A stretch of 53,958 nucleotides of DNA from a virus (taxonomy: Duplodnaviria; Caudoviricetes): the IMG/VR virus record IMGVR_UViG_3300024429_000008, positions 1 to 53,958 of that record. One strand, given 5' to 3'. This document shows, piece after piece, positions 594 through 53,808 of this stretch. Below the pieces are notes generated by a model. It was not told the DNA's origin, made no database searches, and saw nothing but the letters and a program-made list of their open reading frames with translations. The position numbers and the translations under genes are program-made. Numbering within the stretch: the first letter of the stretch is position 1; every line of letters begins with the position of its first letter.

Positions 594-1340
594 ATGCCAG
601 GAATAGGTACTCTACTGAGCACGGACAGACGCGAGTGGATCTGGGTTGCTGGCGAGAATGGCAAGCCCGGGGCCGTTGGGGACCTAGTGAACACCTCCGA
701 AGCGATCCGCATGATCTCCGACCACGCCGTGCAGGTCCTAGGGACGAGTGCTGTTACAGCCTGTGTCTCCAACAACGCCGAGGGTGGAGTGGATATCGTA
801 ACGGCTGGGGCTGACAACGATCAAACCATCCTAGTACCCCACGAAACTACCAATGCCTGCTTGCTACACCCCGACACGATGACTTGGGGTTCAGACCGGG
901 GCACTGAATTCGAGGTCCTGTTCAAGACTCCTTCATCCATTGCGACGATCCTCATCATGGCGGGCCTGAAGGCAGATGACAGCCCTGTGGACCTGGCCAT
1001 TACGGATGCCGATCTGGCTGTGCTGCAATTCAATACAGATGACACCGACACGAACTGGGGTTCCGTCTCAGATACCACAGCGGGATCGGACATCGACAAG
1101 GATACCGGCCATGTCGTGGCGGCCAGCACCATCTACAAGTTTGGCTGGAAGTTTGACCATAAGGGCGTGTGCCATGTATTCATCAACGACGAAGAGGTTG
1201 ACGCGATCGACTTCTCTAATGATGCAGTGGACTTCATCCCTATGATTGCCGTGCAGTCACTAGACGGAGATACCTCAGCTACACCTGCCCTGACCGTATA
1301 TGGGTGGCGGCTGTCCCGACGTTTCGGGGCTTCAGACTAA
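594..1340 (+). CDS. Putative virion beta-sandwich protein, paralog 2
   Basis: RBS AGGAG. Shared motifs RMISD, NAEGG, TWGSD, GLK, FINDEEV, IPMIAVQS. Acidic and Thr/Asp-rich. Confidence 0.75.
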   Translation: MPGIGTLLSTDRREWIWVAGENGKPGAVGDLVNTSEAIRMISDHAVQVLGTSAVTACVSNNAEGGVDIVTAGADNDQTILVPHETTNACLLHPDTMTWGSDRGTEFEVLFKTPSSIATILIMAGLKADDSPVDLAITDADLAVLQFNTDDTDTNWGSVSDTTAGSDIDKDTGHVVAASTIYKFGWKFDHKGVCHVFINDEEVDAIDFSNDAVDFIPMIAVQSLDGDTSATPALTVYGWRLSRRFGASD

Positions 1341-1353
1341 AGGAGAAACTATC

Positions 1354-2088
1354 GTGAGAGCCGGTACAGAAGCCTTCACTACCAAAGAAACAGGTCGCAG
1401 AGACAGGCTAAACCTGATCTGGCACCCCCAACGAGGGAAACCTGCTATTTTAGCAGATTATACCAGTGCCACCGATGCTACCCGAATGATTGCTGATCCG
1501 GACATGCTGATTGGAGGGACTAACATCGCCTCTAATACTTCAGCAGCGGCCGTTGAAGGGGGGTTGTTCTTAGCAGTAACGGCTGATGCTACCAACGCCG
1601 TGGCTATCTCCCCTCATACCCTGGCCAACAACAGCATCTGGCAGCAAGTCACCTGGGGAACGGACCAGGAAGTGGAATGGGAAGCCCTCCTCCAGTATGA
1701 TGCGGTTATGACTGATCGACTCTTCAAGTGTGGACTGTGTCTATTGCCTGCAACCGTAGACCTGGGCACGGACAACGACCAGATCGGATGGATGGCCGAG
1801 GACGACGGGGTTCTCGATGTCATCGCTTCTATCAGCAACGCCGACGTGACCATAGCCGGAGTGCAAACTGTAGTGGCTAGTCAGTACATCCACTTCGCCA
1901 TCAAGTTCGACGCTACCGGAGTCGCCCGCACTTACATTGATGGGCGTGAGGTACAAGTGAATGGGTACTACCGAGGCAACGCCGTAGATCTATTCCCCTA
2001 CGTAGCTACGCTGGAGGACACTTCCGCAGGTGCTCACCCTAAGATCAACGTCCTGGGGATGGCCATCAGCCGGGCGATTGGTACATAA
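1354..2088 (+). CDS. Putative virion beta-sandwich protein, paralog 3
   Basis: GTG start at 1354 after AAGGAG. Motifs RMIADPD, VEGG, TWGTDQE, YIDGREV. Confidence 0.75.
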   Translation: MRAGTEAFTTKETGRRDRLNLIWHPQRGKPAILADYTSATDATRMIADPDMLIGGTNIASNTSAAAVEGGLFLAVTADATNAVAISPHTLANNSIWQQVTWGTDQEVEWEALLQYDAVMTDRLFKCGLCLLPATVDLGTDNDQIGWMAEDDGVLDVIASISNADVTIAGVQTVVASQYIHFAIKFDATGVARTYIDGREVQVNGYYRGNAVDLFPYVATLEDTSAGAHPKINVLGMAISRAIGT

Positions 2089-3515: not shown

Positions 3516-3749
3516 ATGAGCGAGGGCAACGCAATCAACATCACCATTAGGATGGGTGGGGATAGCCTGAATTTCACTTTCCCTAGAGGGACTACAATCG
3601 GGGTCCTGACGGAGGATGGGAGACTACGCGGGTCTGAAGATGCTACTGTACAAGTCAATGGGGTGCAAGCGGATGAGGACACGGTCCTCGAAGACGGGGA
3701 CTGTGTCTCGCAGACGAAAGTGCACGGCCAGCAGGGATCGGACAACTAG
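3516..3749 (+). CDS. Ubiquitin-like beta-grasp protein (ThiS/MoaD/Ubl-like)
   Basis: 77 aa with beta-grasp pattern INITIR..FTFPRGTTIG..VQVNG..DTVLEDGD; ends GQQG-SDN; upstream of E1 and JAB genes. Confidence 0.8.
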   Translation: MSEGNAINITIRMGGDSLNFTFPRGTTIGVLTEDGRLRGSEDATVQVNGVQADEDTVLEDGDCVSQTKVHGQQGSDN

Positions 3750-3763
3750 GTATGTTATTCGTG

Positions 3764-3819
3764 GGCAGAGACAGGGGGACCCCAGGGGATATTATGGTCC
3801 CCACCCCCCTGTCTCTGCC
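3764..3819. repeat. 15-bp perfect inverted repeat built from two 11-mer copies
   Basis: GGCAGAGACAGGGGG (3764-3778) and CCCCCTGTCTCTGCC (3805-3819), intergenic after the Ubl gene. Confidence 0.85.
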
Positions 3820-3849
3820 ATTCTTGATGGGCTAGCTGGAGCAACTACC

Positions 3850-4212
3850 GTGGCAAAGTTTAAGGTTTGGCACCCGGATGGCGAAAGCCACGAGATTATG
3901 GGTGAACTCCGGATACTGACCAGTCAATGTGGACTCCACACTATATTGGCCATCCAGATGGTCCACCCAGTTACGAGTAGCGTGCCAGGTTACCAAGGGG
4001 ATCGGTGGGTCCCAGGAGTACTGTGTCCTATCAATCCTCTTTGTGTTATTGTAGACATGAAGTCAGACAAGATCTGCCACCATCCCCGCCGCCCGCTCAA
4101 CGAACAGCTTATGTCGGACCCGGCTTGGGAGTGGCTGAGGGATAATCCCACTTGGCCAAATGTGCTAGAGTTGGATTGGGAGAAAATGTGGCGTAAGGAG
4201 GATTGGGAATGA
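3850..4212 (+). CDS. Hypothetical protein (Ubl operon)
   Basis: Likely GTG start at 3850 after GGAG; Trp-rich C-terminus; ATGA overlap with the next gene. Confidence 0.55.
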   Translation: MAKFKVWHPDGESHEIMGELRILTSQCGLHTILAIQMVHPVTSSVPGYQGDRWVPGVLCPINPLCVIVDMKSDKICHHPRRPLNEQLMSDPAWEWLRDNPTWPNVLELDWEKMWRKEDWE

Positions 4213-4481
4213 GCTGTGATTGTATAAAACGTATTACCTTGCTGGTTGATCGACTCATCGAGTTGGAGGGCCGCGTAGGTATGATAGAGGCCAACTTGCG
4301 AGTAGCGGCGGAGGCTCTAGGCTTCCCGCCTTGGGATGAGGAAGTACATGGGGGAGGCTTTCCAGCGGAGGAGGATGAGGACCTTCCAGAGATAATCGGG
4401 GAAATTGGAGAGGAGTTTCCCTTTCCAGAGCTGGATGAGAATTTCCCTCCGGTGGAGGCAGAACTCGATGAAGAAAACTGA
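4209..4481 (+). CDS. Hypothetical protein with coiled coil and very acidic tail
   Basis: Translationally coupled on both sides; E/D-rich C-terminal half. Confidence 0.55.
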   Translation: MSCDCIKRITLLVDRLIELEGRVGMIEANLRVAAEALGFPPWDEEVHGGGFPAEEDEDLPEIIGEIGEEFPFPELDENFPPVEAELDEEN

Positions 4482-5190: not shown

Positions 5191-6215
5191 TGTTACATAC
5201 GTTAGAAGATATTTGGGAAGACCTTGAGGAGCAGCAATCCAAGCCTAGGGTAACGATGGGTTCTCCTCTCGGCGAGGAGCAACCACTCCTTGAATGGAAG
5301 GATTTAGAGAAGTACACCACGGATGAGAAAACCGACCTGACCATAGGCAGGGACAATCGAGTGTACGGAATACGGGGGGATGTTGTACAGTGTTGGGCTC
5401 CATTAGCACCTACGGGACCAGAGCAGGTATATCTGGATTGTGTCCGATGGGGGAATGCACCTCCCCTAGAACACCTGGCCCATCTGTTTGAACATTTCTT
5501 CCAGAAGTATGATCAAGAAGTGATTATGCTAGTCGGCCAGAAATTGAATGGATCAGAGTGGCTGTACTTTGTACCTCCCCAAGTGGGGACGGGGGGAGGG
5601 GTGAAGTGGGATATCCGGGGGGAGGCTGCAAAAGAATTCACTGGCTTGGCTGTATGGATAGGAACGATCCATAGCCACCCTGGAAATTGCACCAGCCCCA
5701 GTACAGTAGACGTTAGCGAGTGGGCTGATCCCTTATGCTCTGGTATCCACATGATACTAGGGAACGATGGGAGTTATACTTATCATGGAGCCATCGTCGG
5801 GAAAACATTCCCCCTGAAGAGCGGGACTCTAGAAGGGGTTATGCCAGCACCGGTATGGTGGCGACAAAGTGGTGGGCGTAGCTTGGGAGAGTTGCTGCGG
5901 ACTCCACCCCCACTACCGCCTCCAACGCCCACTGTTAAGACGGTGGATACGACCGCGAGGCCCTTTCCCCGACTCCTAAGAGACGAGATCCCTCACCAGA
6001 TTACTCAAGACGAACCCGGACTCCCACCCGACTCCTATTCGTCCCTCGCCTGCGACCGGGATGACCTGGATGATTTACGGATCGTGTTCTCCGGGAATGC
6101 GGTTTGGATTATGACCTCTCTGGAATGCAGCGTTTGGATGAGTGAAAATCCCAGCCTCAGCTCCGAGGTAGAGATTCGGACGCTGCGGATTCCCAACGGA
6201 GGAGAGCCATCGTGA
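5190..6215 (+). CDS. JAB/MPN+ (JAMM) metallo-isopeptidase
   Basis: Exact JAMM motif HxH-x7-S-x2-D (HSHPGNCTSPSTVD) with upstream Glu (QEVIML); Pro-rich linker after the domain. Confidence 0.88.
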   Translation: MLHTLEDIWEDLEEQQSKPRVTMGSPLGEEQPLLEWKDLEKYTTDEKTDLTIGRDNRVYGIRGDVVQCWAPLAPTGPEQVYLDCVRWGNAPPLEHLAHLFEHFFQKYDQEVIMLVGQKLNGSEWLYFVPPQVGTGGGVKWDIRGEAAKEFTGLAVWIGTIHSHPGNCTSPSTVDVSEWADPLCSGIHMILGNDGSYTYHGAIVGKTFPLKSGTLEGVMPAPVWWRQSGGRSLGELLRTPPPLPPPTPTVKTVDTTARPFPRLLRDEIPHQITQDEPGLPPDSYSSLACDRDDLDDLRIVFSGNAVWIMTSLECSVWMSENPSLSSEVEIRTLRIPNGGEPS

Positions 6216-7966
6216 CCCTTAATGAGGTTGTACAACAAGCTATACGGGACCTAGGAACTGTTGACGGCCAGGCATCCGTGAGTGAATACACTAAGACATA
6301 CCCCTACATGGCTGTCCTAGAAACAGAGATGACATCCCGAGTATATCAGGTACTGGAGAGCGTCGTGGGAGGGTCCCCTGACTTCCCCTCACAACATGTC
6401 CACATGAGGCCGTTCCTACCAGATCGTCAGGATATTGATGGAATTTTGTGGGCTGGGGTACCCTCTCTCACCTGTTCAGGGGAATCTGAAGGAGGAGCTC
6501 TAATATTCCACCAGTTCTATGAGGGGCCACCCGAATCCCCCATCGGACCCGTAGCGTTGAGGATTATGCCTGGTCTCCAAGAGACTGACCTAGCTTTCGT
6601 CCCTATGCGATGTAATCGCCTTCGAGAAGTAATGCAAATTAGGGGAGGCCACCAACTTGATGATCCTCCAGAGCAATTCCCAATCGGCTATAATCGGGCC
6701 TGTCAGCCACGGGTGGATCATATAGCCGCCGCGATTATGGCCCTGGGAACGCATCCCGGGACACCTGGAATAGCCTTCCGAGGGTTGCTAGGGGATACCC
6801 CCATCGCAGTTTTTGCCCGGAGTTTGTGGGAGAACCTGTATCGAGATAAGGGTCCACTCTCCCTACAGACAGTAGGCTCACGCTTCGCCCATGCAGCAAA
6901 AATGGTCTTGGCTTATGCTTACCCGACGATGATGAGCCACCCCACATTGGAGGACTTGAAGTGTATTAGGCAGACTCTCAGGCATCCCCTTTGGAGCCTA
7001 GAGGAGGCGTGGCCAACCTATTACAACCTTGTAGTACCCCCTTCTCTCTTTCAGGCCGCTAGAGAATGCATGACTCAAGGACATACCCCTATCATACCCC
7101 AATACATAACATCTACCGTATGGTTATTCAACGGTGGTAGAGATAATTACTGTTTAGGGACTGATCCCAATCCGGGGAATTCTTGGTGGGCCAAGAAGGT
7201 TTGGGCCGGGATGCACTCCGGATTCAATCTCGACATATCGGGTGAATTCTCTAAGTGGCCGGGGCCAATCCCAGCGGAGTGGGCAACTCTGTTAGTACAG
7301 GCCATGCAGGATCAACAGGAAGAAACCCCACACCTGCGAGCTAGCCAGCAGACTGATGCAGGACTAGAGAAGGCCCGGAACGTACCCTGCATGTTCCGGT
7401 GTGTAGACTCAAGCTATGTAACTTCCTTGATCTACAATTTAGTCGATGCCTCGGGTGAGGTGCAATGCTGTGATGGTAACGGGGTTCCCCAAGAGGTCCC
7501 GCCATGCTCGGACCCCCCCTCCAACCCTTTTGAGAGAGAAGATGATGAAGAAAACGAAGATGACGTGTGTGCAGAGTGTAGAGGATCCTTCGATGACTAC
7601 ACAGTCTGCGGGAATTGCCACGAAATCATTTGTTCGGACTGTCACAGTCGCCCTGAAGGGCATGGGGAGTGTAGGTTCTGCCCATGTTGTCGCGACGATA
7701 CAGACCCCCACTATCGGGTTGATATGGCCCCTTGTCACCTTTGTGGCCGCCTCATTTGTAGTGACCACTATGACCATTGCGAGAGCTGCCTGCACTATAT
7801 CTGCTCTGCCTGTGAGTCTGCAGGAGATCACGCCTGTTCCCCCTGCGAAAGGTGCGGTGGACTATCCGACACCCTAGGTACATGCGAACGCTGTGGGACA
7901 GAAGGTCTATGTGCAACCTGCCGCGAGGGTTGCTGCCTCCTCACACAAGCTGACACGGAAGGATAA
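6212..7966 (+). CDS. Putative prokaryotic E2-like domain fused to a Cys-rich multi-zinc-finger C-terminus
   Basis: FNGGRDNYCLG...W...SGFNLD resembles the prokaryotic E2 family D pattern N..x..C.G...S.FN.D. The C-terminal ~130 aa has more than 10 CxxC/CxxH pairs. The E2 call is by motif resemblance and gene context. Confidence 0.55.
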   Translation: MTLNEVVQQAIRDLGTVDGQASVSEYTKTYPYMAVLETEMTSRVYQVLESVVGGSPDFPSQHVHMRPFLPDRQDIDGILWAGVPSLTCSGESEGGALIFHQFYEGPPESPIGPVALRIMPGLQETDLAFVPMRCNRLREVMQIRGGHQLDDPPEQFPIGYNRACQPRVDHIAAAIMALGTHPGTPGIAFRGLLGDTPIAVFARSLWENLYRDKGPLSLQTVGSRFAHAAKMVLAYAYPTMMSHPTLEDLKCIRQTLRHPLWSLEEAWPTYYNLVVPPSLFQAARECMTQGHTPIIPQYITSTVWLFNGGRDNYCLGTDPNPGNSWWAKKVWAGMHSGFNLDISGEFSKWPGPIPAEWATLLVQAMQDQQEETPHLRASQQTDAGLEKARNVPCMFRCVDSSYVTSLIYNLVDASGEVQCCDGNGVPQEVPPCSDPPSNPFEREDDEENEDDVCAECRGSFDDYTVCGNCHEIICSDCHSRPEGHGECRFCPCCRDDTDPHYRVDMAPCHLCGRLICSDHYDHCESCLHYICSACESAGDHACSPCERCGGLSDTLGTCERCGTEGLCATCREGCCLLTQADTEG

Positions 7967-7984: not shown

Positions 7985-8536
7985 ATGTGGATCATGCAGC
8001 TCCAGTATAATCGGTGTCCTAACGATCCCAACTTGCCAGTAGTCTCCCATGTAGGAATGACCGGTGATGGCAAGGTTGTTGAGGTAGGGCTCGCTGAGAT
8101 AACTAGTGCCCTGTCTCTGTACAGTGCTGCGTGTGTGGTAACTCTGGCAGCAAGGAATGGTATAGTTCCAGATTTCGTTACCCGCGTTGCGATGGCACTA
8201 ACACTTCCAATGAAGGAGGACCCCCATGGATTGTGTCTCCCCACGAAAATACTCATGGAGGCGAGCCTGATCCTGCAAGGACAGAAAATCCTGATGGATG
8301 AAAGGGGTCTCTTGCATACTGATATGGGGAGGCAGGACGGAATAGACCTTTTGAAAGGGTGCTCTCCCCATGTAGAACAGCCACCGTGTTGCAGAGACAG
8401 GCAAAAGATGCTGGAGGCTCTGGAGGATTTGACTAACCAAATGGGGCCTACCTTCGAAGTCGTGGAAGCACATTGTGGTCTAATCGTAGCTGGTTGTTGG
8501 AAGACTGCCCGAACGATTGTCGAATCGGCGGAGTGA
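7985..8536 (+). CDS. Hypothetical protein, last gene of the Ubl operon
   Basis: 183-aa ORF; start may be 7994. Confidence 0.55.
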   Translation: MWIMQLQYNRCPNDPNLPVVSHVGMTGDGKVVEVGLAEITSALSLYSAACVVTLAARNGIVPDFVTRVAMALTLPMKEDPHGLCLPTKILMEASLILQGQKILMDERGLLHTDMGRQDGIDLLKGCSPHVEQPPCCRDRQKMLEALEDLTNQMGPTFEVVEAHCGLIVAGCWKTARTIVESAE

Positions 8537-13735: not shown

Positions 13736-15151
13736 ATGGCGAAGGACAAAGAAGATGCTCGTGAACTCTTACTGAAGGTAGTAAGGCAGACCTGGGGAAG
13801 AGGATTCTACCATCTCCGCTACTGGAGGGGAGACTTCTGGGAGTGGGAATCGAGTGAGTGGGAAGGAAAGGGGACTGCCTACCATCGCATTACGGAGGTA
13901 GAAGTAGGAGGGTGCTTCCAGAAGGCTTTGGTAAAGTTGGGTTACCTTATCACGTCACCTCATCAGGTAGGGGATCTCATAAAGATCGCCCAGCGGGAGT
14001 TTCTCATCCCAGATAGTAAGGACATGCCCGTGATGATAGAGGAACACGATCAATACAAACCCTACCCGGGGTTTGTGGCCTTCCACGACGGCATTATGAA
14101 TACGAGTTTCCTAGGGAGGGTCGTAGAAGGGAGTAACATGCAGGACCACACCCCATTGTGGTTCTCGGATCAGTGCCTGGATTTCTCTTATAGTTCCAAG
14201 GCGACCTACCCCAAGTGGGACAAGTTCTTGGAGGAAGTGTTGCCGGACCCGGAGTTGCAGAAGCTCCTCCAGATGTGGTTCGGGTATACGCTGTTCCATG
14301 ATACATCCCAGCAGAAGTTCCTCCTGGTAGTGGGGCCTGCTGCTACGGGGAAGTCCGTCATGGCCAAGATCATGGGGAAGTTGGCTGGACCCGGCGGGGT
14401 CTCTGCAATCCCCCTTAAGGATTTCGGGAAGCCCTTTTCTCTATACCAGACCTTGGGGAGGAAGATCAACATTGATCCAGATATGTCTGAGCTGGATAAA
14501 GTTGATGAGGGCATTCTGAGGTCCTACGTAGGAGGGGACCTGATGAAGGTGGAGAGGAAGTACAAAGATCCTATAATGGTCTACCCCTCAGCCCGGCTGG
14601 TGTTCTGTACGAATGACCTGCCCCATATTGCAGATAGATCAAATGCGACGTGGCGGAGGATGATCCTACTCCCCTTCGACCAGGTAGTCCCAGTAGAGAA
14701 GAGGAATCCTCACCTGGTAGAAGAACTAAGTAAGGAACTATCTGGGATCTGGAATTGGGCTTGGGAAGGTCTCCAAGAGTTGCAGAGACAGGGCAGGTTC
14801 CTGGAGCCTAAGAGGATGCAGGAGGCTATCGCGGAGTACAAGACCGAGGTGAGCCCCGTCAGACAGTGGCTAGAGGAGAAATGTAAAGTAGGGGCGGATC
14901 ATTGGATCCGATGTACTCAGGCGTATGCTTTATTCGTGAGCTATATTTCAGCCCGTGGTTATAAGACCCCATCCCAGAAGTCATTCGGTCGGTCACTGGC
15001 CGCCGCCGTGGGGGAAACGATGACCCGGGAGGGAACGGTTATCCGCAAGCAGCGAAGGATCGGCGGGCTGGTGAAGTGGTACTACCACGGGTTGTATGTC
15101 GAACCGGAGGACCCACAAGACATAATCGTTAAGGTAACCGAAAACCGTTAG
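13736..15151 (+). CDS. D5/P4-type SF3 helicase (primase-helicase C-terminal domains only)
   Basis: D5_N-like region (AFHDG, HTP..F, PKWDKFL), Walker A GPAATGKS, VERKYK, CTNDLP, WRRMILLPF, C-terminal winged-helix. Confidence 0.88.
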   Translation: MAKDKEDARELLLKVVRQTWGRGFYHLRYWRGDFWEWESSEWEGKGTAYHRITEVEVGGCFQKALVKLGYLITSPHQVGDLIKIAQREFLIPDSKDMPVMIEEHDQYKPYPGFVAFHDGIMNTSFLGRVVEGSNMQDHTPLWFSDQCLDFSYSSKATYPKWDKFLEEVLPDPELQKLLQMWFGYTLFHDTSQQKFLLVVGPAATGKSVMAKIMGKLAGPGGVSAIPLKDFGKPFSLYQTLGRKINIDPDMSELDKVDEGILRSYVGGDLMKVERKYKDPIMVYPSARLVFCTNDLPHIADRSNATWRRMILLPFDQVVPVEKRNPHLVEELSKELSGIWNWAWEGLQELQRQGRFLEPKRMQEAIAEYKTEVSPVRQWLEEKCKVGADHWIRCTQAYALFVSYISARGYKTPSQKSFGRSLAAAVGETMTREGTVIRKQRRIGGLVKWYYHGLYVEPEDPQDIIVKVTENR

Positions 15152-17055: not shown

Positions 17056-18918
17056 ATGGCGGTCGTATTTTCCAAGAAAGGGAATGAATTCTTTCCTTTA
17101 CCCTCTGATTATCCAGAATTAGTGTCGGAGGGACAGCGGCTGGCTCGGGTGAACGCTGTGCAGATTCGGGGAACTCCCGAATTGGAGGTGGCATCTTGGT
17201 TCTTTTTCAAGACCTATTATCTCCTCCCTACCTTACCTGGGGAATTTTTCAAACACGGAACCGTAAAATCGCCCGATATGCACTTTAAGTGGATTTATTT
17301 TTGGGAAGCCAATCAGCTTTCGGTCACAGCTGCACCGAGGTCGGCAGCTAAGTCAACCCTCATTAAGGAAAATATCCTTCGCAAAGTAGTATCCCGGCCC
17401 TACTGGGAGTCGGTTCTGTTCCTAGCCAAACAGGATTTTCTCACGACGACGTTCGATGATTTTATGGTCCAGATCGAAAGGAATGAGCGGATCCTTGAGG
17501 ACTTTGGGGTTCTCAAGCCCAGCCGGAATGAGGGGATCTGGAACCACAGTCAGCTCAAACTTAAAAACGGAGCGATGATTACCGGGATGCCCATCTCGGG
17601 AGCGTCTCTCGGCAAGCGTCCCCATGAGATCTACTTCGATGATGTCGAACGGGATGACAGCCTCATCCTATCTCCCTCCGAAAACATCCAGGGATTCAAA
17701 ACCTTCTTCTTCAATACAGTGTACCCCATGGCTGACTCCCTAGATGTCCGCATCCGCGTAGTAGGGACACTCTTATCCAGGCGGACATTCATTTACTGGT
17801 TGCACAGTACATCAGATCCTCGGATTGATGACTGGAAGAGGTTGTTTCACGCCGTCACATTCGTAAATGAAGAGGGAGGTGCCGAGGATGAGTGGCCAGA
17901 GAAGATGGGCCGGGAGTGGCAAACAGTGCAGCGGCGTCGTATGGGGCCCTCGGCCTACGCTGCTCAGTACGAGAACAATCCTGTCACTGAGGCAGAACGC
18001 ATCCTCCGCCTTCACCCTGAGCTTAACACCTACTGGTTGGAGAACACTTGTGCAGCGACTTACTTGGATCCCCTCAACTCCAGTGCTGTTATGGTCTCCC
18101 ATCAACTCTCCGGATGGGACAAGTCGTTTGAGGACCCTATGCCCCTACCCAGTAAGCTCACAAGGAACTTTGGGGAAGTGGTCAGTAAGATGCGGCGGTT
18201 CATCACTATCGACTCGGCCCCGACAGTTTCGGAGAGTTCGGATTTCTCCTGTATCCACGTGATGGGGATAGAGAACTCCCCCGATTATCGGGACACGCTG
18301 TGGTCCCTAGACATCTGGCTGGGAAAGAAATCCTCTGAAGAGATCGTCCGGAGGACTTATGCCATGGCCATGAAGTGGCAAGTCCCTCTGATAGCAGTAG
18401 AGGCATACCCTGTGCAGATGGAATTCGCCGAGCGACTCAAGCATGATCTCCCCTCCATGTACGGCCAGGGTCAGGTTCCCTGCCGGATACTGGCAGTGAA
18501 GTTCCCCACTCACTACAAGAAACCTGACAAGATCGCTGGGCTACATTGGCGGTTCAAACAGTTCCGGTTGAAGCTGCCACTGGACCGACGAGACGAGGAA
18601 GGCTACAAGGCCCTATTCTACCAAGTAGAGAACTTCACGGAGGACCTCGCCCTATTGCAGCACGATGATGCCATAGACACACTAGCAATGCACTTGGCCA
18701 TCGGCAAATCCGTGGCCCCTGTTGGGCCTGATGAGCATCAATTCAAGACCCCAGTGGATATGCTCCGGGACGGAGAATATCACTACGAGTCCGGGATCAG
18801 TGTGATGTCGGGCATGAACGCGAGCGAGATACCGGACGACGTTCTAGATACGATGTTGGGTCGGCAACGGGATGATCTCGAAGAAGAACCGAACCTCGAC
18901 TGGGTAAACTATGCGTAA
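17056..18918 (+). CDS. terL: Terminase large subunit
   Basis: Walker A APRSAAKST, Walker B IYFDDVE, VVGT coupling motif, QYENNP; RNase H-like nuclease residues ITIDSA, SDFS, HDDAIDTLA. Confidence 0.92.
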   Translation: MAVVFSKKGNEFFPLPSDYPELVSEGQRLARVNAVQIRGTPELEVASWFFFKTYYLLPTLPGEFFKHGTVKSPDMHFKWIYFWEANQLSVTAAPRSAAKSTLIKENILRKVVSRPYWESVLFLAKQDFLTTTFDDFMVQIERNERILEDFGVLKPSRNEGIWNHSQLKLKNGAMITGMPISGASLGKRPHEIYFDDVERDDSLILSPSENIQGFKTFFFNTVYPMADSLDVRIRVVGTLLSRRTFIYWLHSTSDPRIDDWKRLFHAVTFVNEEGGAEDEWPEKMGREWQTVQRRRMGPSAYAAQYENNPVTEAERILRLHPELNTYWLENTCAATYLDPLNSSAVMVSHQLSGWDKSFEDPMPLPSKLTRNFGEVVSKMRRFITIDSAPTVSESSDFSCIHVMGIENSPDYRDTLWSLDIWLGKKSSEEIVRRTYAMAMKWQVPLIAVEAYPVQMEFAERLKHDLPSMYGQGQVPCRILAVKFPTHYKKPDKIAGLHWRFKQFRLKLPLDRRDEEGYKALFYQVENFTEDLALLQHDDAIDTLAMHLAIGKSVAPVGPDEHQFKTPVDMLRDGEYHYESGISVMSGMNASEIPDDVLDTMLGRQRDDLEEEPNLDWVNYA

Positions 18919-48369: not shown

Positions 48370-51036
48370 TCAAGTAGCAATTCTCCGAATCTTTACATCA
48401 TAATCCAGTGGTAGCGACCGGCCCAATTCCTCACATAAGGCTCGGTAATATGGGGGGTTTGGCAGAATCCTTTTCAGCAGAGACAGGACGACGGGAAGTT
48501 CACACTCGTGGCATTCAATTGTGGCTGCATCGTACACATTCAGAGGAGTCACAGCCCGCATGTGACGTTGCTTGAAGGCCAATGCCAACTCGAACTGAGC
48601 TGACAGTGTAATGTTCGCGGCGACAGCCTGCACGGGCATGTTGACGATCTCTTTTATCTGGTCCTGTCTCTGCCTCTTGTTCCCTAAGAACAGCCGGGAC
48701 TGACCGACCAGAGGCAGCTCAAAGTAACCGTGCTTCTGGACGAACTCCATCAGTTCATTCTGCCACTTTCTGAGCCCCTGAGCACAACCCCACCAGGTGT
48801 CGATGTCGATCTGGCACTGATCCAAACGACGGGCGATCCCTTCGTCACGCATGAGGGTGGTTTGGTACTGCTTGGCTCCGCCGAGATATATGACCAGAAA
48901 ATTGAGGGTCTTGCCCACCTGGCGGAACCTTTTTCCCGTCTCTTCAGGGAATAACCGATGGGCCGTAGCTAGGTGGAAATCACAGTTCGGTTTGCTGTAC
49001 TCCCCCATCATCCATGGATCATTAGATAGTAAGGCCGCCATGCGGAGTTCAATCTGGGAATAATCGAACCACAGAAGGTACTGGTATCGGGAAGACATGC
49101 ACGCCTTCACCTTGGGAGGGAAGGTCTGGACGGCGGGGCCCTTAGCTACAATACGACACTGCTTTGTTCCCCCACCACTCCCATCTTCCCAATCTGAGGG
49201 AACTGGGTACCATCGGGGGTAAATTGTACTCTCTATGAGTTTGGTGCTTGGATCGTTGTGCTTAGAGCCCCGCCCGACCAGCAATGGATATAAATATCGG
49301 TCGAGGATGCCAGTGACGGTGTGCATAGCCGTAATAGCCCGCAACTGTTTGTAAGGTTCCACGTCGTGAGGGAGGACCGACATCAAAGCATTACGATTCT
49401 CCTCACAATAGCTGATCTCTTGCCGCACGGTGGTCTTTTCCAATGGGGGGACAGGGGCTCCCCCCACTCGACATGCGATAATGGCATTCTTCATCACTTC
49501 TCGCTTGGTCTTTTCACTTCCCTTCCCCCGCAGAGATAGGCCCCAACGGTTCTTGATCCCCGCTTCCAGCTTGCGTAATCTCTCCTCGTAGGATTGCAAT
49601 AATCCTCGCAACTCCGGGGCTGACATTGTGATCCCCGCCTCTTCCATCCAGATAGTCAGCCACAGGAGATCGCTGTACCACTTCCTGTTGAACTCGCTCA
49701 GCTTAGGGGTATCGGCCCCGTATGCGGACGAAATCAAGTCCTCTAAAACCTCTTGTGACCGGAGGGTTGCCGCTGAATCCTGTACATTGTACCGCCACAG
49801 ATCCGGACTCTGCTCGTCTGGGTACTGCCGGAACCCCCCCAGGCGGTACTTCGTCACCCCAAGTAGGGGTGCCAGAGCTTTCAGACTCCTCTCCGGTCGG
49901 CCCTCGTTGTGGAGGTAGTTTGTCACAGTCAAGTCTTGGATAGTCAAAGGGTGATCTAACCACACTCCGCACTCCGGGTATGCGAACCTCAGATACATGA
50001 GATCGAACTTGATGTTCTGGCCGAGGAGGAACTCGAAGTCGTTCCTCTGTGTCCGACATGCTCTTAGCCAGCTCCATAATTTCCTCCTGTGAGTAGAGTC
50101 CGACATCACGAAAATGCAGTGCCTCAACGATCCGCTCAGCTGTCGGTGTGTCAATCCAGTCGTTACACATAAATTTTCCTTTCGTACTTCATCGTAAAGC
50201 ACAGATTTAAGAGGATGGAACTGCGTCTGATTCTGACCTTCCAGAATCCCATAGGTTTCAATATCGAGTGAGAGTTGTCGGATTGGGTAAGAAGGAGGCA
50301 GGGGAGCAACTTCATACTCCATCTCGTCGCCCTTGATTTCGTAGGCCAGGGTTCCCCCCAGGAACCTTTTTAATGTTGAGAGGTGTGCTTCCACAGCTGG
50401 ACCTTTGTTTGGATCCCGCAAGAGGGCAGCCGGGTGATAAGTCGTGAATACTCTACAGGGGGTAGGAAAAGGGGGAGCCGCTGGGTTCGTCAGGTACGGC
50501 CCAACGATCTCCCCCAGAGCGGTAATTGACTTTGGCGTCCTTGCAGTCAGAGCACGAAAGTCCGTGTGCTCTCCTTGTTGGTTGAGGGACTTCTTGAGAG
50601 ACACCCCCAGGATAGACTTGCAGCTTGTGGCCCCAGTTGCCAGAACGATCACCTCTTCATAGCATTTCTGAAGATGGAGGATATCCGCTAGGTAGTACCC
50701 CTGGCACGCCTTGAGCTGGGTCAGGTTCGGAGTCTTGTTCTTAGGGGGACGGCATTTCACGGCGTTGGAGAGGTACACATCTACTTCCTCTGGAAATTGA
50801 AAGTGCTCGATGTAGGCTTTCCTTAGTAGCCCCCCAGCTTTCCCCACCCAGGGGAGGCCCTGCATATCCTCCGTATACCCCGGGGCCTCCCCTATGATGA
50901 ACATACACCGGCTCTTGTCGGTATCTGATGGCTGAACCGGCCAGGGGAGACCCCCATAACGTACCGTCGGTACACACGTGGTGTCACACTGTTCCCATAA
51001 AGGGCAAGCTCGACATTGTGCATTCCGGCAGGACAT
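48370..51036 (-). CDS. polA: Family A DNA polymerase with N-terminal uracil-DNA-glycosylase-like (family 4, Fe-S) domain
   Basis: UDG: CRACPL, IIGEAPG, NAVKCRP, YHPAALLR. Exonuclease: DIET, NIKFD, YNVQD. Polymerase: DYSQIELR, RQVGKTLNF..IY, VYD. Start ATG at 51036 (TAATG overlap). Confidence 0.92.
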   Translation of the reverse strand: MSCRNAQCRACPLWEQCDTTCVPTVRYGGLPWPVQPSDTDKSRCMFIIGEAPGYTEDMQGLPWVGKAGGLLRKAYIEHFQFPEEVDVYLSNAVKCRPPKNKTPNLTQLKACQGYYLADILHLQKCYEEVIVLATGATSCKSILGVSLKKSLNQQGEHTDFRALTARTPKSITALGEIVGPYLTNPAAPPFPTPCRVFTTYHPAALLRDPNKGPAVEAHLSTLKRFLGGTLAYEIKGDEMEYEVAPLPPSYPIRQLSLDIETYGILEGQNQTQFHPLKSVLYDEVRKENLCVTTGLTHRQLSGSLRHCIFVMSDSTHRRKLWSWLRACRTQRNDFEFLLGQNIKFDLMYLRFAYPECGVWLDHPLTIQDLTVTNYLHNEGRPERSLKALAPLLGVTKYRLGGFRQYPDEQSPDLWRYNVQDSAATLRSQEVLEDLISSAYGADTPKLSEFNRKWYSDLLWLTIWMEEAGITMSAPELRGLLQSYEERLRKLEAGIKNRWGLSLRGKGSEKTKREVMKNAIIACRVGGAPVPPLEKTTVRQEISYCEENRNALMSVLPHDVEPYKQLRAITAMHTVTGILDRYLYPLLVGRGSKHNDPSTKLIESTIYPRWYPVPSDWEDGSGGGTKQCRIVAKGPAVQTFPPKVKACMSSRYQYLLWFDYSQIELRMAALLSNDPWMMGEYSKPNCDFHLATAHRLFPEETGKRFRQVGKTLNFLVIYLGGAKQYQTTLMRDEGIARRLDQCQIDIDTWWGCAQGLRKWQNELMEFVQKHGYFELPLVGQSRLFLGNKRQRQDQIKEIVNMPVQAVAANITLSAQFELALAFKQRHMRAVTPLNVYDAATIECHECELPVVLSLLKRILPNPPYYRALCEELGRSLPLDYDVKIRRIAT

Positions 51037-51461
51037 TAGGAATCTTCCTTTGAAGCCTTCTCTATATCTGACTTCAAGATAATCAACCAATGTTCCAGTG
51101 CCTGTACTCGTTCTCTCAAGACTTTCGAGACGCGTCGAACTTTCCAGGGATCATCCCCGGGTGGGGGAGACGGCTCTCGACTCGTCCATTGTCGCTCAGT
51201 GAATAGCTTGGCCTTGCAGGCGACTTCTAGTGCTAGGATCCGCTCTAGGTGGTCATCGCCCCTCTCCTCCTCAATCTCCATCCGCTCGGCGAGACCCTCA
51301 AACCGTATCGTAAGGATCTCCAGTTGCTTCGTTAGGCGACCGAGATTCACCGTCAGGAAGTTGTGACCCTCTTTCAGGAGTTCCAGTTTCTCTGAATCAG
51401 TCTCTGCCCTCATCACTGGCAAATCCTGTCCTGTCTCTGCCACTGGATTCTTTTCAGCCAT
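51036..51461 (-). CDS. Hypothetical coiled-coil protein
   Basis: RBS AAGGAG; coupled to polA. Confidence 0.6.
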   Translation of the reverse strand: MAEKNPVAETGQDLPVMRAETDSEKLELLKEGHNFLTVNLGRLTKQLEILTIRFEGLAERMEIEEERGDDHLERILALEVACKAKLFTERQWTSREPSPPPGDDPWKVRRVSKVLRERVQALEHWLIILKSDIEKASKEDS

Positions 51462-51997: not shown

Positions 51998-52041
51998 GAA
52001 AAAAAGCAGAAACTTTTTCGTCTTTTTTTCTTATTTTGGGC

Positions 52042-52070
52042 TTGACTTCGGCCTTCGCGGGGCGTATACT
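52042..52070 (+). promoter_or_regulatory. sigma70-type promoter of the paralog operon (divergent pair)
   Basis: TTGACT-17 bp-TATACT; 11-mer at 52077. Confidence 0.8.
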
Positions 52071-52088
52071 AAGGGTGCAGAGACAGGT

Positions 52089-52136
52089 GACCGGGGGAGG
52101 TAATGCAAGACGTTGCACCCCCGGTCCTATTTTTTT
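52089..52136 (+). terminator. Terminator-like hairpin in the 5' leader (possible attenuator)
   Basis: GACCGGGG...TGCAA-GACG-TTGCA...CCCCGGTC followed by T7; flanked by 11-mer copies. Confidence 0.6.
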
Positions 52137-52155
52137 GCAGAGACAGGAGACGAAT

Positions 52156-52737
52156 ATGTCCTTGGATGAGGTAGGGTACACAGGTCGGGACACGACCGAG
52201 AGTTGCGACGACATGACCGGCCTGATGCTCCAGAACCCGCAATCAATGACCCAGGCAGCTGCGGGGCTCGATAGTGCAAGCCTGCCCAGCGAGTCCGCCA
52301 TCGAGATCGAGCAGACCACATATGGCCAGCCATTCATCGCAGCCTACACTGTCATGGCCCATGCAGATGCGGGTGGGGATACTCTTACCATAGCCCTCAT
52401 GGATCCGGCAGGGACGGCAGGGACCCCGAATGGCCCCGCCCCCTTCAAGTTTCAGGTGCTGCGGTGGTGGGTAAAGGCGGGCGACGTTGCGGCGACCCCC
52501 GAAGGTCTGATGACGATCCAACATCTTAGCTCGGCTTCCGCTGCAAGCTCCATGTCAGCACAGTATGATTTGAACTTGGACGCCGATGACGTCGGGTATA
52601 CTGCTGATGGAGCAATTGAGCTAGTAGACCCATATCACATCATTGATACTGGGGAGGGGATCCAGCTATCCGTCGTGCTGGGTGCCAACGAAGAGGCTGA
52701 CTTCGAGATTTACTTCTTGTGCATGAGGGTTCAATAA
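52156..52737 (+). CDS. Putative virion decoration/spike protein, family A copy 1
   Basis: ATG at 52156; shares TG, QNP.SM, YGQ.F, PFKF.VL and CMRV with 53278..53808. Confidence 0.7.
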   Translation: MSLDEVGYTGRDTTESCDDMTGLMLQNPQSMTQAAAGLDSASLPSESAIEIEQTTYGQPFIAAYTVMAHADAGGDTLTIALMDPAGTAGTPNGPAPFKFQVLRWWVKAGDVAATPEGLMTIQHLSSASAASSMSAQYDLNLDADDVGYTADGAIELVDPYHIIDTGEGIQLSVVLGANEEADFEIYFLCMRVQ

Positions 52738-53264
52738 TGGCCGGGTCAAATTACACAATTCACTCTTCGTTGATGGCCCGGGGGGCCGATGATAATAAGG
52801 GTATGAGCGTATCTCCGAAGTTCGCCATGCTAGAAATTGATGGGGATGCTTACGGCAACGGCGTGCTGGCCAACTACCACGAGTTGGTATCCGGCGACGA
52901 CACCGAGGGGACAGGCATAATCGTCCTGTCTCTGCGAGGGATGGTGACAGAAGCCATCGCCCAGGATACCACCCAGATGGTGGCGACTGTCCGAACGAAG
53001 GGGGCAAGCCCCGGGACGATGGGGACAATCACAGCCGCAGACAACCAGCCGGTGGGGGACATCATTGACGGTTCCATCACGGCGTACTGGGGTGAACACA
53101 CGTCCGACGCGGACATCTCGGCCTATTGTGTACCAGCAGGATACGGTTTGGAATGTGCCCTAACCACGGCGGGGTTGGAAACGGACTCATCTGATACCGA
53201 AGGGCGGATTCTGGTACTTGTAGAGTACCTGGTGATTCCGCGTCGAGTTACCGAAAACCAGTAA
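52737..53264 (+). CDS. Putative virion decoration protein
   Basis: TAATG coupling; jelly-roll-like ending GRILVLVEY. Confidence 0.65.
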   Translation: MAGSNYTIHSSLMARGADDNKGMSVSPKFAMLEIDGDAYGNGVLANYHELVSGDDTEGTGIIVLSLRGMVTEAIAQDTTQMVATVRTKGASPGTMGTITAADNQPVGDIIDGSITAYWGEHTSDADISAYCVPAGYGLECALTTAGLETDSSDTEGRILVLVEYLVIPRRVTENQ

Positions 53265-53277
53265 TGGAGATACTGTA

Positions 53278-53808
53278 ATGAGTTTGAAGGAAACTGGAAG
53301 AACGGGATCCGACGTTCAACTGACTGCTGACACAGTCTTTGGGATTGTGACCCAGAATCCGGAGAGTATGCTTCACTCCTTGGCGGGGATGGAGACAGGT
53401 GGCGATGGATCCAAAGCTTACGGGCAGAAGTTCGTGTTGTCCAGCCGGTCGGCCCAGACGGTGAGTGGTACGACTACTATCAACTTCGCCGCCGCGAATT
53501 CTCCCTTCAAATTCCGGGTGCTAGGAGGCCAGGTCATTTGCTTGTCGGATGGGGCCAATCGGACCATGCGGGGCAACGGACGCAGTGCAGTGGTTGTCAC
53601 CCAGGGGGACACATCGACGTTGACTACCCTCCATTGTAGCGGTATGACAGTTGGGGAGACGCGAGAGATTCAACTGAATACCCTAGGTAACGATGTAGTT
53701 GAGGAGGATGGAAGCCTGCGGGTGAGCGTTGTCAGTGTGCTACCAGCTCTGGACAAGGCTTCGACTTGGGAACTAGTGGTAGTGCTTGACTGCATGAGAG
53801 TCATCTAG
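53278..53808 (+). CDS. Putative virion decoration/spike protein, family A copy 2
   Basis: Paralog of 52156..52737. Confidence 0.7.
   Translation: MSLKETGRTGSDVQLTADTVFGIVTQNPESMLHSLAGMETGGDGSKAYGQKFVLSSRSAQTVSGTTTINFAAANSPFKFRVLGGQVICLSDGANRTMRGNGRSAVVVTQGDTSTLTTLHCSGMTVGETREIQLNTLGNDVVEEDGSLRVSVVSVLPALDKASTWELVVVLDCMRVI

Follow-up and report, generated by a model that had tools for sequence, protein, structure and literature searches.

The genome of an uncultured virus, IMGVR_UViG_3300024429_000008 (Duplodnaviria; Caudoviricetes), encodes a 584-amino-acid (aa) protein that is the likeliest tag-transfer enzyme of a virus-borne ubiquitin-like gene set. The window analysed here is the whole record, which is 53,958 bases (b) long and rated 100% complete. 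Upstream of the 584-aa protein lie genes for a candidate ubiquitin-like protein (Ubl), an E1-like adenylating enzyme and a JAMM metallopeptidase (Table 1). We tentatively read the protein, at somewhat less than even probability, as a new-fold cysteine-dependent Ubl-transfer enzyme that would act as an E2 or E2/E3 hybrid in a conjugation operon of the virus; we infer every catalytic step as well as the target. Its predicted fold has no detectable relation to the ubiquitin-conjugating (UBC) fold of E2 enzymes.

A family of 22 proteins, the query included, was recovered from 1.84 billion representatives by exhaustive HMMER search at a threshold of E<=1e-3; 19 of them reach E<=1e-10 and four reach E<=1e-30, and their lengths range from 296 to 660 aa. 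Alignment of the 22 representatives revealed 11 invariant columns, namely P276, P296, N307, C314, G316, G333, N339, G344, W357, P392 and G424. F306 is kept in 21/22. The most conserved 20-residue block comprises residues 281-300, and all blocks spanning residues 261-360 rank among the most conserved. A reading made earlier from the sequence only (the sequence-only reading) had proposed the Cys of a YCLG motif as the catalytic residue of an E2; this residue, C314, is present in 22/22 members, as are N307 and G316, so that one of the two grounds on which the call could have been refuted falls away. No His is conserved, the best His column being occupied in 6/22 rows, so that the site is predicted to be a lone-Cys active site, as in E2s. 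With C314 and N307 fully conserved and no His column above 6/22, Cys-His hydrolase or transferase chemistry is excluded, and the pattern agrees with lone-Cys chemistry of the E2 type. Cys-His peptidase and transglutaminase readings were ruled out because the family has no conserved His. As judged from the alignment, C314 is a single invariant Cys in a well-conserved segment with invariant Asn, Gly and Pro around it, a pattern typical of catalytic and not of structural residues. The second conserved cysteine, C420, might serve Cys314 as a relay or redox partner.

A wider homologue search with the family alignment returned only the 584-aa protein itself, and the ESM Atlas gave no usable match for its core. 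Neither blastn nor tblastn found a match in the phages collection, and a viral contig search with the single 584-aa protein, P0003, P0022 or P0023 was likewise without match. Neither the 584-aa family nor the E1-like protein was found by a pattern scan of 185,579 prokaryote genomes, and tblastn of the E1-like protein against plasmids gave chance-level rows alone (E 2-9).

The open reading frame (ORF) of the 584-aa protein is a real gene. It has homologues, a Shine-Dalgarno-like GGAGGAG lies 7 nucleotides (nt) upstream of its GTG, and this start overlaps the stop of the upstream JAMM gene (GTGA). The sequence motifs, the acidic linker and the tail of repeated CxxC/H units that had been noted in it are all present in the translation. 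F306-N307 is followed by GGRDNYCLG at residues 308-316, with the Cys314 codon at nt 7151-7153, and WAGMHSGFNLD occupies residues 331-341. The tail holds 13 CxxC/H units. Cys residues number 26 in the 139 residues from 446 to 584 and 11 in residues 1-445, and make up 1.2% of the other window ORFs of at least 200 aa. The N-terminal ~290 aa had been left unassigned and stay so, since neither they nor the rest of the protein matched a family in Pfam (E<=0.1), PHROGs, PADLOC or NCBIfam.

We then considered whether the core could be a UBC domain. An AlphaFold2 model of the full-length protein had a predicted local distance difference test score (pLDDT) of 74.8, and the core modelled alone (residues 60-430) had a pLDDT of 85.1 and a predicted template modelling score of 0.81. 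Foldseek of the core against PDB and BFVD gave nothing at E<=0.001. The UBC domain is an alpha/beta fold with an N-terminal helix, a four-stranded antiparallel meander, a Cys loop and C-terminal helices. From residue 269 the core model runs through strand, helix, strand, Asn-Cys loop, helix, N-x-D loop, helix and helix, an order of elements that recalls the C-terminal two thirds of UBC; three strands come after the helices, and the N-terminal UBC elements are without counterpart. N307 sits 7 residues before C314, and the His and Pro of HPN are replaced by (M/L)-F. The HPN-type Asn of UBC lies about 8 residues before the catalytic Cys. A UBC or E2 chain was in none of the fold-search lists, which were filled by helical matches, the region around the Cys being barely tested. 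On the predicted model, therefore, a UBC fold for the core is not supported.

Profile searches gave a similar picture. UQ_con and Prok-E2 profiles matched 0/22 family members, even at E<=10, and a six-frame search of the whole genome with PF00179, PF14457, PF14459, PF14460, PF14461 and PF14462 (UQ_con and Prok-E2_A to E) returned nothing at E<=1. With no E2 of a known family in the genome, the 584-aa protein is left as the sole large protein with a conserved Cys that could supply the missing step. The E2 call is thus partly supported. Motif and neighbourhood argue for it, through the invariant YCLG Cys, the lack of a conserved His, the operon with Ubl, E1-like and JAMM genes, and the lack of any other known-family E2. 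The fold evidence does not support UBC, and UBC and Prok-E2 profile matches are lacking; the UBC-like fold that the call implied was not detected.

The Cys-rich tail had been described as a set of RING- or B-box-like fingers forming a dedicated E3-like module. RING domains have a C3HC4-type ligand pattern with set spacing. In the tail, by contrast, the fourth ligand is Cys, and a gap of 4 residues stands where RING has 2-3. Its consensus spacing, CxxC-x11-12-CxxC-x4-CxxC-x3-CxxC-x4-CxxC, resembles that of B-box1. In the predicted model, residues ~462-541 align in structure to Slp/RIM/FYVE-type fingers, with poorer alignments to PHD (4.1), ZZ (3.5) and RING (HOIP RING1 3.1-3.7; TRAF3 and PML 2.6-2.7). 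Weak profile matches of the tail were to the piggyBac Cys-rich domain (E 0.005) and MID1 B-box1 (2ffw_A, E 0.062), and weak Pfam matches among the members were to Siva (5/22, best E 0.013), an ANCHR-like B-box (3/22, best E 0.82) and zf-B_box (1/22, E 0.43). RING families were absent from the Pfam matches of the 22 members at E<=10. By its model the tail is a generic cross-brace array of B-box/FYVE-like type, not demonstrably RING; the fingers thus model as cross-brace zinc fingers with weak B-box-type matches, and are not specifically RING-like. The tail is present in 17/22 members, with 3 to 13 CxxC units, and 5/22 have at most one Cys there. Since these five relatives lack the fingers, the array is accessory rather than a fixed E3 module, and the notion of a dedicated E3-like module is not supported.

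Inspection of the upstream genes revealed candidates for the other parts of a Ubl system. Their assignments as MoaD-like, E1-like and JAMM proteins come from weak profile matches that are mutually consistent. The 77-aa candidate Ubl had no Pfam match; its two best PDB profile matches, both weak, were MoaD (1vjk_A, E 0.19) and ThiS/MoaD-like PF1061 (1rws_A, E 0.21). It has an AAGGAG site before its ATG and is kept in two related virus contigs at 41-43% identity. Its C-terminus reads G(K/Q)QG with 0, 1 or 3 residues after it, the Gly being conserved in 3/3 sequences; a conserved Gly with such trailing residues fits a precursor for JAMM trimming. The ORF of the candidate Ubl overlaps, in another frame, the 5' part of a 198-aa ORF (3616-4212, plus strand), which probably starts later or is spurious because homologues in the related viruses exist only for the 77-aa ORF. 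The E1-like protein matched Pfam ThiF (E 0.0089) and NCBIfam PRTRC_ThiF (E 2.3e-4) below cut-off, and its family and PDB profile matches were overwhelmingly of the E1 superfamily (MccB 0.07, MoeB 0.19, UBA6 0.5, UBA3 0.96). It keeps the motifs GCGGTF, IDPD..N..RQWP and VNVDND..RL, which are conserved in three related loci. The JAMM gene matched Prok-JAB (E 4.3e-5, 23.8 bits against a cut-off of 25), PADLOC JAB (2.3e-5) and NCBIfam Cap3 (4.8e-4), as well as AfJAMM and AMSH-like proteins (E 0.13-0.25), and carries an invariant E followed by HxHx7SxxD (IHSHPGNCTSPSTVD). The adenylation-domain and JAMM motifs expected of a Ubl-E1-JAMM operon are therefore intact, at scores below the curated cut-offs. 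Conserved extensions flank the JAMM catalytic domain on both sides, and the N-terminal ~95 aa contain an invariant Cys (VQCWAP / IECLAP).

Whether this arrangement is kept elsewhere was determined by comparing neighbours with BLASTP and alignments. A sub-alignment of 11/22 family members recovered related loci on two virus contigs, L002 (54,336 b) and L003 (55,120 b), and on the short metagenome contigs L004 and L006; L005 and L002 are one contig. The conserved order is HExxH protein, 77-79-aa protein, variable ORFs, E1-like, JAMM, 584-aa family and a Cys-bearing protein of 130-190 aa. JAMM lies directly upstream of the 584-aa family in 4/4 loci with upstream DNA (the window, L002, L003 and L004), with the stop/start overlap kept, and the E1-like gene is upstream of JAMM in 4/4. 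A small putative beta-grasp (Ubl-like) protein is found in 3/3 loci that reach that far, and the downstream Cys-bearing protein in 5/5. Identity between loci is 25-28% for the 584-aa family and about 40% for the E1-like and JAMM proteins. The four-gene system spans ~4.5 kb, with one or two unconserved ORFs between. The DNA between the Ubl and E1-like genes is not conserved among the related viruses; here the E1-like gene is directly preceded by a very acidic 92-aa ORF (4203-4481, plus strand) that matched no family and lacks homologues in the related loci.

Table 1. Coordinates, in the 53,958-b window, of the 584-aa protein and its parts, of neighbouring genes and of other genes
Feature	Position	Strand	Basis or remark
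584-aa protein: conserved core, acidic linker, Cys-rich tail	6212..7966	+	ORF listing, translation
Conserved core, residues 60-430	6389..7501	+	predicted fold without known neighbour
Candidate active site N307-x6-C314	7130..7153	+	family consensus WMFNGxxxxPCTGL
Second conserved cysteine C420, ECDxSG motif, at core end just before acidic linker	7469..7471	+	19/21 rows with residue
Acidic linker E441-D451	7532..7564	+	translation; pLDDT <50 over residues 430-462
Cys-rich tail C453-C575, about three predicted binuclear cross-brace (B-box/FYVE-like) zinc-finger modules	7568..7936	+	
MoaD/ThiS-like candidate Ubl, 77 aa, ends ...HGQQG-SDN, last conserved residue Gly74	3516..3749	+	
E1-like (ThiF/MoeB-type) adenylating enzyme, 240 aa	4468..5190	+	
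JAMM/MPN+ metallopeptidase with N- and C-terminal extensions, 341-342 aa	5190..6215	+	
Cys-bearing 183-aa protein, invariant RCP, HxLC and CPP cysteines	7985..8536	+	homologues directly downstream in L002, L003, L004, L006
HExxH (SprT-like) protein, 101 aa	2755..3060	+	SprT-like E 0.0029, phrog_1233 E 3.3e-12; kept in L002 and L003
Three tandem paralogous genes	69-584, 594-1340, 1300-2088	+	
D5-like primase-helicase	13736-15151		
Large terminase	17056-18918		
Family A DNA polymerase (PolA) with N-terminal uracil-DNA-glycosylase-superfamily domain	48370-51090	-	UDG E 4.2e-18, DNA_pol_A E 2.5e-25

In the proposed mechanism, the JAMM peptidase would remove whatever follows the terminal Gly of the 77-aa candidate Ubl, and the ThiF-like E1 would adenylate that Gly. 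The activated Ubl would be handed as a thioester to Cys314 of the 584-aa protein, in an active site shaped by invariant Asn307 and the N339/D341 loop, with Cys420 as a possible second relay position. The variable acidic linker and zinc-finger tail may then bring in the target, which would be a protein of the phage or of the host. Several points weigh against this reading. All context comes from one group of syntenic viruses of ~54-55 kb, so the gene order could be inherited rather than functional. The E1-like, JAMM and Ubl matches all fall below curated cut-offs, and the Ubl has a QG rather than a GG terminus. The true transfer enzyme could be the 183-aa protein downstream, with its invariant cysteines, and Ubl-E1-JAMM sets without E2 exist as sulfur-carrier systems (PMC1779556). 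A predicted complex of Ubl(1-74) with the core scored 0.57, compared with 0.46 for a control with an unrelated 83-aa protein, and was used neither way.

Among other explanations, the 584-aa protein might be non-catalytic, as a substrate, scaffold or adaptor of the Ubl system. It might also be an early product unrelated to the pathway, such as a zinc-finger protein for host takeover, tied to the other genes by synteny only. In either case Cys314 would have a structural role or a different chemistry. We consider this group of explanations rather unlikely. In its favour, a fold without known relatives implies no function, a single syntenic virus group supplies all contexts, the region belongs to an accessory or early block upstream of primase-helicase and terminase, and the 183-aa neighbour offers an alternative Cys-bearing partner. 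However, the JAMM stop/start overlap is kept in every locus where it could be seen despite the low identity of the proteins, the flanked invariant Cys looks like an active site, and the six-frame search for known families left the genome without another E2 candidate.

The gene set could also be a sulfur-carrier (thiocarboxylate) system, with the 584-aa protein as a persulfide carrier or thiolation enzyme acting via Cys314 and perhaps Cys420. Weighing against it, known sulfur carriers end in GG, whereas the Ubl here ends in QG. In its favour, the best Ubl matches are sulfur carriers of the MoaD/ThiS type, two conserved Cys with no His would fit persulfide relay chemistry, and since the virus has its own DNA replication genes, nucleic-acid modification is conceivable. 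Sets of E1-like, JAB and ThiS/MoaD genes without E2 are typical of sulfur assimilation clusters (PMC1779556). Also against this role, Pfam and NCBIfam revealed no rhodanese, PP-loop, cysteine desulfurase or radical-SAM signature in the 584-aa protein or its neighbours, and a variable cross-brace finger tail after an acidic linker looks like a protein-recruiting module; we regard a sulfur-carrier role as improbable. To a true but extremely diverged UBC-fold E2, possibly permuted or insert-bearing, we give very little credence. The UBC active site consists of PP, a beta strand, aromatic-x-x-Asn, 6-7 residues, the Cys, a helix and an N-x-D loop. This is resembled by GIPPIVPQYxTxxxWMFN-x6-C, helix 325-335 and FNLD, and strand 269-275, strand 295-300, the Cys loop and three helices are congruent with the C-terminal two thirds of UBC; bacterial E2-likes without the HPN His also exist (PMC1779556). 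We retain a cysteine-dependent Ubl-transfer enzyme of new fold as the favoured reading.

We compared the gene set with known systems. Related bacterial systems conjugate Ubls in anti-phage defence, and operon type 6d of Iyer, Burroughs and Aravind 2006 is presumably the Bil anti-phage system. Operons of Ubl, E1-like, JAB and E2-like genes are an established bacterial theme, and some of the E2-likes lack the classical His (PMC1779556). In common with type 6d (same source) and Bil, the virus genes fill four roles, with a small putative beta-grasp protein whose C-terminus has a Gly, an E1 of ThiF-like type, a JAMM protein and a conserved-Cys protein without the E2 His. They differ in residing in a virus rather than a host defence island, in a Ubl ending in QG, in a minimal 240-aa E1, and in a 584-aa Cys protein that has zinc fingers and neither UBC signature nor detectable UBC fold. 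The profile searches of the 22 members and of the six-frame genome found no UBC-related E2-like component such as a type 6d or Bil-like operon would hold. With type II of the cyclic-oligonucleotide-based antiphage signalling system (CBASS), which has Cap2 (an E1-E2 fusion) and Cap3 (JAB), the set shares a weakly Cap3-like JAMM and the expected E1-type activation of a C-terminal Gly, but it has no CD-NTase and no E1-E2 fusion, its Ubl is separate, and its transfer candidate is unrelated in sequence. Bub pathways illustrate how far bacterial Ubl systems can stray, in both chemistry and components, from the canonical thioester E1/E2 scheme (PMC11601596). As described there, Bub uses recognisable E1/E2 relatives, oxyester intermediates and a serine protease, in contrast to the invariant Cys, the JAMM and the lack of a recognisable E2 here.

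The pairing of a putative Cys-bearing transfer module with a predicted cross-brace zinc finger is alike in idea to the Caldiarchaeum cascade of E1, E2 and small-RING E3. It also recalls eukaryotic E2/E3 hybrids such as UBE2O and BIRC6, in which a Cys transfer module works with, or is fused to, a cross-brace zinc finger. Those are bona fide UBC and RING proteins, whereas here neither part matches its family; the fingers are nearer to B-box, FYVE or Slp types, and 5/22 relatives are without them. Among phages, the lambdoid/T1 tail-assembly proteins TAPI (Ubl) and TAPK (JAB and NlpC/P60) are a precedent (PMC1779556). These pairs lack an E1, whereas Ubl, E1-like, JAMM and Cys protein occur together here, away from structural genes. 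ThiF/E1-like genes are reported for the Asgard virus Nidhogg, and only E1-like genes are reported for Asgard viruses in the part of 10.1101/2021.07.29.454249 that was available. We found no report, in a literature search that did not cover supplements, of a virus-borne operon uniting Ubl, E1-like, JAMM and a conserved-Cys protein of unknown fold.

Other genes flank the system. The 183-aa protein directly downstream matched no family in Pfam, PHROGs, PADLOC or NCBIfam, and nothing in the ESM Atlas at 0.9 or above; it may be part of this module, or else an alternative partner with conserved cysteines. The 101-aa HExxH protein is a possible second peptidase of the module, its membership being uncertain. 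Strong GGAGG-type ribosome-binding sites precede the operon genes. Predicted promoters and terminators were not enriched, at 19 for an expectation of 14.9±3.8 and 16 for one of 16.0±3.6. No tRNA or tmRNA genes were found in the whole window. PolA has at most ~26% identity to any cultured phage polymerase, and a PD-(D/E)XK nuclease is also encoded. Each of the three tandem paralogues at the left end matches one common L002 gene and two common L003 genes, at 29-34% identity. Homologues of the right-end genes (52036-53808) sit immediately upstream of those of the left-end genes (1-2504) in L002 and L003, and the window ends therefore mark a permutation point of a complete genome and not a fragment edge.

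Descriptions of prokaryotic Ubl conjugation have until now concerned the host side (defence), with components that are recognisably related to E1 and E2. A more far-reaching proposal, which we put forward as unlikely, is that prokaryote viruses invented the E2/E3 step independently, with a Ubl, a minimal E1, a JAMM, a new-fold Asn-x6-Cys enzyme, perhaps a C420 relay, and a swappable B-box/FYVE-like tail, and that they tag host or viral proteins in infection. If the 584-aa protein does carry Ubl, a non-UBC scaffold can do the E2 step, which would bear on the origin of ubiquitin-type cascades, and phages could tag proteins themselves in counter-defence, host takeover or assembly control.

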